Positions 19,696 through 21,075 of a stretch of 39,075 nucleotides of DNA are shown piece by piece. Position numbers and translations under genes: made by a program. The stretch is taken from contig JAUSGG010000089.1 in NCBI GenBank assembly GCA_030649165.1, positions 1-39,075 of the forward strand, in the 5' to 3' direction. The DNA comes from Armatimonadota bacterium (GTDB lineage Bacteria > Armatimonadota > UBA5829 > JAUSEB01). Under the pieces are notes generated by a model. That model was not told the DNA's origin. It searched no databases and saw nothing but the letters and a program-made list of their open reading frames with translations. Each line of letters starts with the position of its first letter. Position 1 is the first letter of the stretch.

Positions 19696-21075
19696 TCAAA
19701 AGCCGAACACACGACGGCGATCGCGTTCCATCAGTCCTCGGTATCCCCCTCCAGCACCGAACGCACGTGCCGGCCCTACGACAGGTGCTAGCCAGTTGCC
19801 AATGCAGGAGATGCCCGTCTTAAGGGTCTGAGCCAACTCCATGTCTGCAGGATCAATGATTCCCACGATCCTTTCCAGATCGCTAATGGGCAGGAAGCAG
19901 ATCCCTCCTCTGACGTAGCATGGAGGATGGGAATCGAACGCAGAGCGCATGACAGTCCTTGCGTCGGCATCCCGTGGAACGTTATGATGAACGTGCTCCA
20001 TGAGGCAATATCGAGTCTGATCCAGCCAGTTCTGTCCTGCCGAGGACAGCGTCGGGCGCAGTCTATCGCTGAAACGCCTGCAGTACTTGAGTCCGTATCC
20101 GATGTAATATCCTCTCGGCCCTAGGCTGTACCCCGAGTTAGCCTCCCGACAGCGGTAGAACTCGCAGGCCGAACGGCCATCCATCGTCATGTATCGAACG
20201 CAATCCTCGGAGTAGAGACGCCGCTTGGTGTTTACTGGACTTCGCTGAACATGACGTGATCGCTGCTGCATTACATGCGTCAACTCGTGCGCCAGCAACT
20301 GCTTTCCGACTTGAGCGCCGGAAGTATGTTGTCCGGTTCCGAAAACTATGTCATGCCCAACTGTGAAGGCTCGCGCGCTCACAGCCCGTGCGGCTTCAGC
20401 AGCCCTTCCATCATCGTGAATTCGCACGCTACTGAAGTCATATCCGAACCGCGGCTCGAAGAACGCTCTGGCGGAGGCCGGCAAGGGCTGGCCACCGCCC
20501 CTCATCGAGACGATCCGAGCTTGCAGCGCCGGTGTCACCACTGGCGCTCCTCCGGTCGCGGCCTTTGCCCGTAGCAAATCCCCTTCCTTTTCCTCATCCT
20601 CAGGCTGCCGCCGGATCTCGTCGTCATCGCAGTCCGCGCATGCCCGCCGGATGCTAGACGGCGAATCCAGAGGGGAAACCAAGGGAGCCTCGTCTCTGCC
20701 GGGATCCGGCATTCGCATGACCTGCTCCGCCACCCGGTCGGCTTCCTCTTCGTACTTGTCTCCCGGCTGTCCAACGGTCAACTTCGCCTGCACCTTCGGC
20801 GGGCACGTATGGCACGCGCCTCCAAACGGGCAGCGCTTCGGTGTCATCCTCAGGGGACATGCTTCCGCCGCCTGCTTGCCTGCCATGTCGGCGCTTCTCT
20901 CCGGCGGCGCGACGACCTGACTCGGCCGAAGCGGCGCGTGCCGCGCGCCATTCCGCATTCGCGGCGCAGCCTGGTTGCTTATCCCCGACGATATCTGAAC
21001 GTCGGGCAGTTTTGCCGGTCCCGCCTTTGCCGCGTTCTCGGGCTTCTCATTCTCGCTTACTGGGGCATGCAACAT
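19696..21075 (-). CDS. DUF4157 (zincin-like HExxH) domain protein with Cys-rich N-terminal and ~190 aa Cys/His-rich uncharacterised C-terminal domain; eCIS cargo/effector candidate A
   Basis: KLTVGQPGDKYEEEADRVAEQVMRMP plus FFEPRFGYDFSSVRIHDDGRAAEAARAVSARAFTVGHDIVFGTGQ...LLAHELTHVMQQ is canonical DUF4157. The C-terminal domain is unrecognised. Confidence 0.7.
   Translation of the reverse strand: MLHAPVSENEKPENAAKAGPAKLPDVQISSGISNQAAPRMRNGARHAPLRPSQVVAPPERSADMAGKQAAEACPLRMTPKRCPFGGACHTCPPKVQAKLTVGQPGDKYEEEADRVAEQVMRMPDPGRDEAPLVSPLDSPSSIRRACADCDDDEIRRQPEDEEKEGDLLRAKAATGGAPVVTPALQARIVSMRGGGQPLPASARAFFEPRFGYDFSSVRIHDDGRAAEAARAVSARAFTVGHDIVFGTGQHTSGAQVGKQLLAHELTHVMQQRSRHVQRSPVNTKRRLYSEDCVRYMTMDGRSACEFYRCREANSGYSLGPRGYYIGYGLKYCRRFSDRLRPTLSSAGQNWLDQTRYCLMEHVHHNVPRDADARTVMRSAFDSHPPCYVRGGICFLPISDLERIVGIIDPADMELAQTLKTGISCIGNWLAPVVGPARAFGAGGGYRGLMERDRRRVFGF

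Follow-up and report, generated by a model that had tools for sequence, protein, structure and literature searches.

The closest described counterparts of the protein reported here are the cargos of extracellular contractile injection systems (eCISs). In AlgoCIS, the cargos Cgo1 and Cgo2 consist of an N-terminal domain (NTD) that is disordered and required for loading into the lumen of the tube, a DUF4157 domain that can be dispensed with, and a variable C-terminal domain (CTD) that is taken as the effector (bioRxiv 10.64898/2026.05.27.728243). The eCIS-associated toxins (EATs; Geller 2021, Danov 2024) have the same NTD-DUF4157-CTD layout (PMC8213781, PMC11297309), and about half of all predicted eCIS toxins are DUF4157 proteins, most of them (983 of 1130) with unannotated CTDs (PMC11297309). 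The nearest solved relative of the DUF4157 domain is VgrG2b-Cter, which is toxic solely in the periplasm (PMC6899460). "A few" bacterial homologues of stanniocalcin have also been mentioned, and were set aside as possible horizontal transfer (PMC5654410). Here, we propose that protein A, encoded in a 39,075-bp contig of an Armatimonadota metagenome-assembled genome (MAG; contig JAUSGG010000089.1, analysed in its entirety and called the window below), very probably carries a stanniocalcin-superfamily domain as its CTD and is probably a cargo of the eCIS whose genes surround it.

Protein A is annotated by NCBI solely as a "DUF4157 domain-containing protein", and PF13699, once named DUF4157, is now called the "eCIS core domain". 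The part of the gene first singled out for its cysteines and histidines, 19696-20268 (-), encodes residues 270-459 and the stop codon. The features on which the argument rests are as follows:

19696..21075 (-), protein A, 459 aa, eCIS cargo-type (open reading frame (ORF); exact match to P0009 / MDO8586988.1)
20251..20505 (-), DUF4157 / eCIS_core zincin-like domain, aa 191-275 (PF13699, E = 7.9e-31, aa 197-273)
20275-20289 (-), HELTH, intact, aa 263-267 (sequence)
19777..20220 (-), stanniocalcin-like helical bundle, aa 286-433, with 8 Cys and the invariant H383
19699..19776 (-), C-terminal motif GPARAFGAGGGYRGLMERDRRRVFGF, aa 434-459, about 25 aa, mobile module of DUF4157 proteins

We assign the CTD of protein A, with high confidence, to the stanniocalcin superfamily as an all-helical bundle. 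When its predicted structure was compared with solved structures using Foldseek, ranks 1-4 were taken by four STC2 chains, and the predicted fold is the all-helical one of stanniocalcin (reference points: PF03298 / IPR004978; human STC1 and STC2; structures 7y5q, 8a7d, 8a7e, and 8hgh). At the sequence level, protein A and its CTD, searched directly against Pfam, NCBIfam, and PDB sequences, returned DUF4157 alone, and a first word-indexed homologue search found six relatives (52-66% identity), two of the six in eCIS loci. When 1.84 billion cluster representatives were next searched exhaustively with a profile, 2356 proteins were recovered at E <= 1e-3 (1214 at E <= 1e-10), protein A itself among them; it was solely through this search that the family came into view. 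A profile of 40 family sequences run against a set of 5.8 billion proteins gave 4 matches. Architectures and co-occurring families were read from the best 150 of the 2356 matches, and it is to this set that the counts below refer.

The family so defined reaches the stanniocalcins from both sides. PF03298 (Stanniocalcin) is matched by 33 of the 150, with a best E-value of 8.3e-17, and the amphioxus protein XP_002598638.1 (P0123) is recognised both by the eCIS-type profile (E = 1.6e-22) and by PF03298 (E = 9.9e-15; 54.9 bits, cut-off 23); further profile matches are from a dipteran and a fungus. In turn, a profile of 150 members headed by protein A picks up the human STC2 chains of the PDB (E = 1.6e-6 to 5.6e-6), six cysteines (C5-C10) being in register. 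The first-pass annotation had predicted a distinct toxin or metal-binding domain at this position. A distinct, conserved domain it is, but the prediction was to fail if the domain belonged to a known non-effector family, and the family it matches is indeed one of a secreted hormone and protease inhibitor. A pore-forming, colicin-like reading of the bundle was also considered and dropped, the bundle being polar and framed by disulfides.

The cysteines also link protein A to this family. They are enriched, with 8 in the 148-residue domain against a Cys frequency of 1.0% in the window's 23 other genes (P = 1.6e-4, binomial), and each of them (C292, C304, C309, C332, C357, C386, C393, and C424) occupies a column in which Cys is conserved across the 150 relatives. 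The wider family has ten such columns, of which protein A fills 8, with Leu318 and Ala372 at the fourth and the seventh. Exactly these two columns are lost together elsewhere: C4 and C7 are jointly absent from 10 of the 150 domains and discordant in 2, and C2 and C5 are jointly absent from 12 and discordant in 0. Read from the alignment, joint loss of this kind is the signature of disulfide partners. The experimentally mapped pairings in human STC1 (UniProt P52823), which we take to be 2-5, 4-7, 6-8, and 9-10, agree with these losses. A C1-C3 disulfide is stated for stanniocalcin, and accepted nematode stanniocalcins also lack one Cys pair (PMC5654410). Hence the cysteines, lost in pairs and consistent with the stanniocalcin pattern, point to disulfides rather than to metal sites.

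This bears on the idea, put forward in the first-pass annotation, that the region is a Cys/His-rich metal-binding domain or a toxin. In its fuller form the idea would make it a domain binding zinc or iron-sulfur, or a new enzymatic toxin of the polymorphic type. It draws on the 8 conserved cysteines together with the invariant His in SHPxCY, on the synthesis of the protein in the cytoplasm, where Cys bind metals more often than they form disulfides, and on the enrichment of toxins among DUF4157 proteins (PMC8213781, PMC11297309). The description as Cys-rich holds; the description as His-rich does not, there being 5 His in 190 residues (P = 0.15), with an HVHH cluster that varies among close homologues. 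Only one histidine is conserved, H383 (19927-19929 (-)) in SHPxCY, which is the sole invariant residue across all 150 aligned members; human STC2 has no equivalent and reads QRECY at that position. H383 could be a functional site or a helix cap. With cysteines lost pairwise instead of in ligand sets of three or four, and without conserved histidines, metal binding was rejected. Nor does a polymorphic toxin fit: no Rhs, PAAR, or VgrG fusion occurs in the best 150 of the 2356 relatives, no conserved immunity-like or partner gene was found in the related loci compared, and no toxin or enzyme family was matched in Pfam, NCBIfam, or PDB sequences. As the domain belongs, by fold and by sequence family, with the secreted, disulfide-bonded stanniocalcins, we regard a metal-binding or enzymatic identity as very improbable.

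The setting of the gene is that of an eCIS cargo. By Pfam matches, the window holds a complete eCIS on the minus strand:

6157..31243 (-), eCIS operon containing A and B, from the sheath gene to the tail fibre (Pfam)
29636-31243 (-), sheath (Pfam)
29115-29624 (-), gp19 tube (Pfam)
26181-27443 (-), Pvc16_N (Pfam)
24100..26199 (-), Pvc15-like AAA+ ATPase with winged-helix domain (WHD) (Pfam AAA 1.7e-30, WHD 1.3e-08)
23027-23680 (-), CIS_tube (Pfam)
21610-22737 (-), GPD hub (Pfam)
21101-21841 (-), spike OB domain, Phage_base_V (Pfam)
18790..19545 (-), peptidoglycan-binding and CHAP hydrolase (PG_binding_1 7.4e-14, CHAP 1.4e-12)
16981..18432 (-), protein B, 483 aa, second DUF4157 cargo-type protein (PF13699, E = 4.5e-30)
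16507-16881 (-), PAAR-like (Pfam)
16118-16495 (-), gp25 (Pfam)
within the operon (-), two Baseplate_J genes (Pfam)
6157-9162 (-), DUF6519 / beta-helix fibre (Pfam)

Protein A, the CHAP hydrolase, and protein B are thus three genes sitting between the spike and PAAR-like genes, the hydrolase adjoining gene A and lying between the two cargo genes; a related eCIS locus, L005, holds a CHAP segment 55% identical to this hydrolase. The Pvc15-like ATPase is presumed to be the cargo loader, a role taken from the literature (bioRxiv 10.64898/2026.05.27.728243). The spike ORF overlaps that of the GPD hub by about 230 nt, and its true start is probably an internal Met near nt 21598, as its Pfam domain begins at residue 97. 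Between the CHAP gene and that of protein B there is a putative 94-residue ORF with a TTG start (18444-18728 (-)), for which neither a Pfam match nor a counterpart in related loci was found.

Over its whole length, protein A follows the plan already known for eCIS cargos, with disorder at the N-terminus, then a DUF4157 zincin, then a C-terminal domain of the variable kind. In the full-length AlphaFold2 (AF2) model, residues 190-275 (DUF4157) are confident, a helix is predicted at residues 107-121 (EEEADRVAEQVMR), and residues 440-448 are of low confidence, while the N-terminal features, with predicted local distance difference test scores (pLDDT) where available, are these:

20761..21075 (-), disordered N-terminal region, aa 1-105 (AF2 pLDDT 30-49 over aa 1-100)
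20914-21060 (A) and 18262-18414 (B) (-), N-terminal similarity of A and B (BLASTP)
20803..20859 (-), N-terminal Cys knuckle CPLRMTPKRCPFGGACHTC, aa 73-91 (sequence motif)
20713..20757 (-), conserved helix KYEEEADRVAEQVMR, aa 107-121, upstream of DUF4157 (predicted, pLDDT 73-90)
20629-20640 (-), second CxxC, aa 146-149 (sequence motif)

The N-terminus is polar and has no hydrophobic stretch, and protein A lacks a signal peptide. By analogy with AlgoCIS, where NTDs are needed for loading, it is presumed to be a loading sequence. At their extreme N-termini, proteins A and B are weakly similar (A residues 6-54 against B residues 7-57, BLASTP E = 3e-4) and share the motif SNQAAPRM...LRPSQV, that is, [GS]NQAxxRM...LRPSQV, a candidate for a system-specific loading signal; P0004, P0018, P0028, and the Methanosarcina protein discussed below likewise have a recurring GN[QR]AVxRL motif. 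The Cys-rich N-terminus noted at first pass (CPFGGACHTCP, residues 82-92) is one variant of a recurring CxC...CxxC knuckle, found in the NTDs of 8 homologues (P0007, P0008, P0012, P0017, P0022, P0027, P0028, and L005) and missing from protein B; its sole Pfam match is insignificant (zf-CCCH, E = 0.015). The other peptides quoted there are likewise present, the C-terminal strings within residues 291-397 and HELTH at 263-267. The helix upstream of DUF4157 also recurs, as xxEQEADRxAxxVMRM, in P0008, P0013, P0017, P0022, L006, and the Methanosarcina protein.

Proteins A and B had been described as two payloads sharing one delivery module. What they share is the DUF4157 domain (40% identity) and the weak N-terminal motif, and their CTDs are, as claimed, unrelated (BLASTP E = 4). 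The 331-residue CTD of protein B (16981-17976 (-)) has no Pfam or PDB sequence match; its motif NCNEFVHEVY, with upstream His residues, looks like a papain or NlpC-LRAT-type fold.

Taken together, PF13699 with an intact HELTH, the disordered NTD, the position of the gene inside a complete eCIS operon, the occurrence of relatives in eCIS loci, and the layout known from the literature make it probable that protein A is a cargo of the surrounding eCIS. One could instead give it a role inside the particle or the producing cell, for instance as a plug, in assembly, or on the cell's own envelope during lytic release. The gene does lie in the middle of the structural operon, between spike and PAAR-like genes, and not at its 3' end; the adjoining CHAP hydrolase could serve release; and the C-terminal motif, common to otherwise different DUF4157 proteins, could be a docking signal. 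However, the domain is present in just a part of the eCIS loci, and an orphan copy (L006, in an Acidobacteriaceae MAG) lies away from any eCIS genes, which is unlike a structural component. The layout is, moreover, that of experimentally loaded cargos (bioRxiv 10.64898/2026.05.27.728243), and the family otherwise consists of small secreted proteins. Hence a role in the particle or the producer seems improbable to us.

The relatives show what the domain is combined with. DUF4157 and the stanniocalcin-like domain occur together in the eCIS operons or DUF4157 cargo arrays of L001, L002, L004, L005, and L023, and the eCIS context of the domain extends over six independent loci. In L005, from a Lysobacteraceae MAG, the gene of the domain protein adjoins an AAA+ gene. 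Several DUF4157 cargos are present per locus and one of them carries the domain. Among the best 150 relatives, the co-occurring Pfam families are eCIS_core (19), OmpA (7), and PA14, Peptidase_M15_4, Somatomedin_B, and CarboxypepD_reg (1 each); when the six first relatives are added to the best 150, DUF4157 is present in 21 of 153 family proteins. An OmpA-like peptidoglycan-binding domain of about 170 residues is inserted between DUF4157 and the stanniocalcin-like domain in L005, L006, L012, L013, and five others. DUF4157 is missing from P0004 and P0018, which combine an N-terminal GNRAVxRL motif with the stanniocalcin-like domain, and most of the wider family are small proteins, about 60% of them with a signal-peptide-like or lipoprotein-like N-terminus by a crude test. 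The domain therefore also occurs without DUF4157; its confinement to DUF4157 as a single conserved protein would have refuted the first-pass annotation.

Downstream of the domain genes, the neighbours differ from locus to locus: the CHAP gene in the window, a 97-residue ORF in L001, a 183-residue ORF in L002, and a Pvc16_N gene in L023. The 183-residue neighbours of L002 and L003 are unrelated to each other, and the small ORFs of the window have no counterpart in the related loci. In the L004 locus, four DUF4157 genes form an array, after which come a GerE regulator and a giant RHS protein. In P0123, the Branchiostoma floridae protein XP_002598638.1, a pair of stanniocalcin-like domains precedes a zinc peptidase domain, Peptidase_M15_4. 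Stanniocalcin-like domains thus recur beside zinc metallopeptidases, in the DUF4157 fusions, in P0123, and in the pairing of STC with PAPP-A.

The short motif at the end of protein A behaves as a unit of its own. About 25 residues long (GGGYRGLMERDRRR), it follows the helical bundle of protein A; these last 25 residues (FGAGGGYRGLMERDRRRVFGF) are near-invariant in the closest relatives and absent from the wider family, whose matches end at about profile position 143. The consensus is GGG[YF][RG]GLMERDR[RQ]R, with the G, L, M, R, and D positions invariant in 15 tails. Genome and metagenome scans show that it also ends DUF4157 proteins of the archaeon Methanosarcina, whose Cys-rich CTD is a different one, and that it follows a long helical CTD in L011. 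In L016, L017, and L019, it comes immediately behind the DUF4157 linker and precedes a CTD that is homologous to that of the Methanosarcina proteins. Its positions in these loci are:

about 10019-10093, motif in L007/L008
about 3028, motif in L011
about 1623, motif in L016
about 800, motif in L017
about 1841, motif in L019

Wherever the N-terminal part is readable, the motif is accompanied by DUF4157, and it is free to stand before or after the payload; each locus has a single copy, and the sister DUF4157 cargos all lack it. A profile of the 42-residue tail run against the 5.8-billion-protein set gave 2 matches. Since it occurs with differing CTDs, once per locus and in varied positions, we consider the motif an independent short module. 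It may be a site of processing, act as a pseudo-substrate of the zincin, or serve as a docking signal.

The Methanosarcina-type CTD is a second Cys-rich family on DUF4157 proteins, with CSKxLE...HAY/HAFF...GPNSNTF[AV]G motifs and a weak match to Pfam DUF3750 (E = 0.0065). It lies before or after the tail motif depending on the protein, and is represented by 8735-10108 (+) in L008, 8717-10093 (+) in L007, and the C-terminal parts of the L016 and L017 proteins.

In light of these architectures, what might the domain do? One option is that, with or without the short motif, it is a cis-acting regulator that would keep the DUF4157 zincin latent in the producer and set it free after delivery, the DUF4157 domain being the actual toxin, as in VgrG2b. 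Stanniocalcins are physiological inhibitors of a zinc metalloproteinase (PMC11925022, PMC9579167), and the domain is repeatedly fused to zinc peptidases (the 21 DUF4157 proteins above and Peptidase_M15_4 in P0123). The reversed order in P0019 suits a partner module better than a terminal payload, and VgrG2b-Cter, itself a DUF4157 zincin, is a periplasmic toxin that needs an immunity protein, of which no gene is seen here. Still, 983 of 1130 predicted DUF4157 cargos have other CTDs or none annotated (PMC11297309) and the sister cargos of each locus lack the domain, so DUF4157 generally does not need it; P0004 and P0018, conversely, carry the domain without a zincin to restrain. Where both are present, the OmpA-like domain may hold them apart, and the disulfide-dependent fold would not form in the producer cytoplasm, which is where latency is needed. 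Cgo1 was reported to inhibit growth whether or not its metalloprotease motif is intact (PMC11297309), and the tail-bearing DUF4157 domains form no clade in a quick, poorly resolved neighbour-joining tree. We therefore treat a cis-acting regulator as the main rival and as rather unlikely, given that most DUF4157 cargos lack the domain, that one cargo per locus has it, and that it exists without DUF4157.

The alternative that we prefer is that the domain is itself the payload of an eCIS cargo. That P0004 and P0018 lack DUF4157 and that one cargo per locus has the domain argue for a payload over an accessory of the zincin. Tentatively, and as somewhat less probable than not, we propose the following mechanism. 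Protein A would be made in the reducing cytoplasm without a signal peptide, and the Pvc15-like AAA+ ATPase would thread the unfolded protein into the tube by way of its NTD. Once ejected by the eCIS, the stanniocalcin-like domain would reach its disulfide-bonded fold solely where conditions are oxidising, which most plausibly means a target bacterium's periplasm or cell envelope, or else the outside medium. It would then act as a binding or blocking module and not as an enzyme, with a partner that may be an envelope zinc metallopeptidase, by analogy with STC1 and STC2 on PAPP-A. An oxidising envelope site is suggested by the disulfide framework in a protein without a signal peptide, by the OmpA-like domains of sister proteins, by the adjacent CHAP hydrolase, and by the periplasmic action of VgrG2b; it is also favoured by the signal-peptide-like N-termini in some 60% of the family, on the same crude test. 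The step to a zinc metallopeptidase partner is weak, and draws on the inhibition of PAPP-A by STC1 and STC2, the fusion to DUF4157, and the amphioxus fusion to Peptidase_M15_4. Taken as a whole (identity, cargo role, and mechanism), we put this explanation at a probability of about 55%.

Several observations weigh against it. The CTD of protein A does not match PF03298 even at E <= 10, and a 7-sequence eCIS-type profile aligned to an STC2 fragment in the right register but not significantly (hhalign probability 3%), and was not used as evidence. As a consequence, homology to stanniocalcin rests on transitive sequence links together with the fold. We speak of a stanniocalcin-like domain, and not of stanniocalcin proper, since the Pfam model is not reached, there is no signal peptide, and 8 of the 10 cysteines are present. 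In P0019 (949 aa; L004, 10001-12850 (+)), the stanniocalcin-like domain is N-terminal to DUF4157, which is followed by a 600-residue C-terminal region; with that order, the domain is not "the" C-terminal payload there. The functional analogy is also loose, because STC2 blocks PAPP-A through steric and exosite binding plus a specific disulfide, and not by a general inhibitor mechanism (PMC9579167). The neighbourhoods of non-eCIS bacterial homologues held no protease partner, their contigs being short or carrying unrelated redox and hydrolase genes, and eCIS delivery into the periplasm was not found in the literature searched.

Beyond the operon, a 1469-residue bacterial alpha-2-macroglobulin, a protease-trapping protein (33881-38290 (-)), and a polysaccharide deacetylase-domain protein (32273-33580 (-)) adjoin the sheath end of the eCIS. 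Past the fibre end, on the opposite strand (1082-6098 (+)), are an SPFH/Band 7 protein (686 aa) and a VIT and von Willebrand A protein (851 aa). Among the Pfam matches of the window proteins, none pointed to a pappalysin-like gene.

The delivery architecture described here is already known, and the stanniocalcin-like payload and the mobile motif are not described in the literature searched, in which no stanniocalcin has been reported with contractile injection systems or secretion-system effectors. Our analysis assigns one unannotated CTD of a DUF4157 protein to a disulfide-framework binding fold, not an enzyme-like toxin, and suggests that the cell envelope, or another oxidising compartment, is where certain eCIS cargos act, by binding rather than by catalysis. 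With more than 2000 sequence clusters, many of them bacterial and secreted or lipoprotein-like, and with fusions to zinc peptidases, the family described here offers a tractable microbial system for the function of this fold, and the GGGYRGLMERDRRR motif is a separate lead on the function of DUF4157.

A bolder view, which we consider distinctly unlikely, is that stanniocalcin-like proteins are an old and large microbial family, located in the envelope or outside the cell, that binds zinc metallopeptidases. One member would have been made an injected weapon in some bacteria and archaea-associated systems, a disulfide-dependent module that blocks proteases, sent into the periplasm of a competitor or onto eukaryotic surface proteins, and the short motif would be a linear signal recognised or cleaved by DUF4157. 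If true, the ancestral function of an animal hormone, stanniocalcin, could be studied in bacteria.

How, then, does protein A compare with the known systems? The minigluzincin zymogens (proabylysin, 4jiu; projannalysin, 4jix) offer one comparison, from which protein A and its relatives differ in that the GGGYRGLMERDRRR motif lies before the CTD in some proteins, and not at the C-terminus. The C-terminal metallopeptidase of VgrG2b (with Tpe1; type VI secretion system, PDB 6h56) is also delivered by a contractile machine, and acts in the periplasm, the compartment proposed here. It is, however, fused to the spike, has a cognate periplasmic immunity protein, and is toxic in an HExxH-dependent manner (PMC6899460), whereas the zincin of protein A is an internal module with no immunity gene nearby.

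With the stanniocalcins, protein A and its family share the Cys framework, which is in register, the joint losses that match disulfide partners, and relatives that exceed the PF03298 threshold. Unlike them, its domain has no signal peptide, is preceded by disordered sequence and a DUF4157 zincin, and is encoded within an eCIS operon. Of the 10 framework cysteines 8 are present, with no 11th, dimerisation Cys identified, and protein A carries the extra C-terminal motif and the invariant His in SHPxCY.

The closest likeness is to Cgo1, Cgo2, and the EATs, with which protein A shares the disordered NTD, the DUF4157 domain with HExxH, and a variable CTD, as well as the arrangement of two genes with related N-termini and unrelated CTDs in one operon with a Pvc15-like AAA+ ATPase. 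It differs in having the C-terminal short motif, which is unmentioned for these proteins in the literature searched, and in the placing of genes A and B between the spike and PAAR-like genes instead of at the operon's 3' end. Above all, the CTD of protein A would be, in place of an enzyme-like toxin, the disulfide-framework binding fold of secreted eukaryotic proteins.

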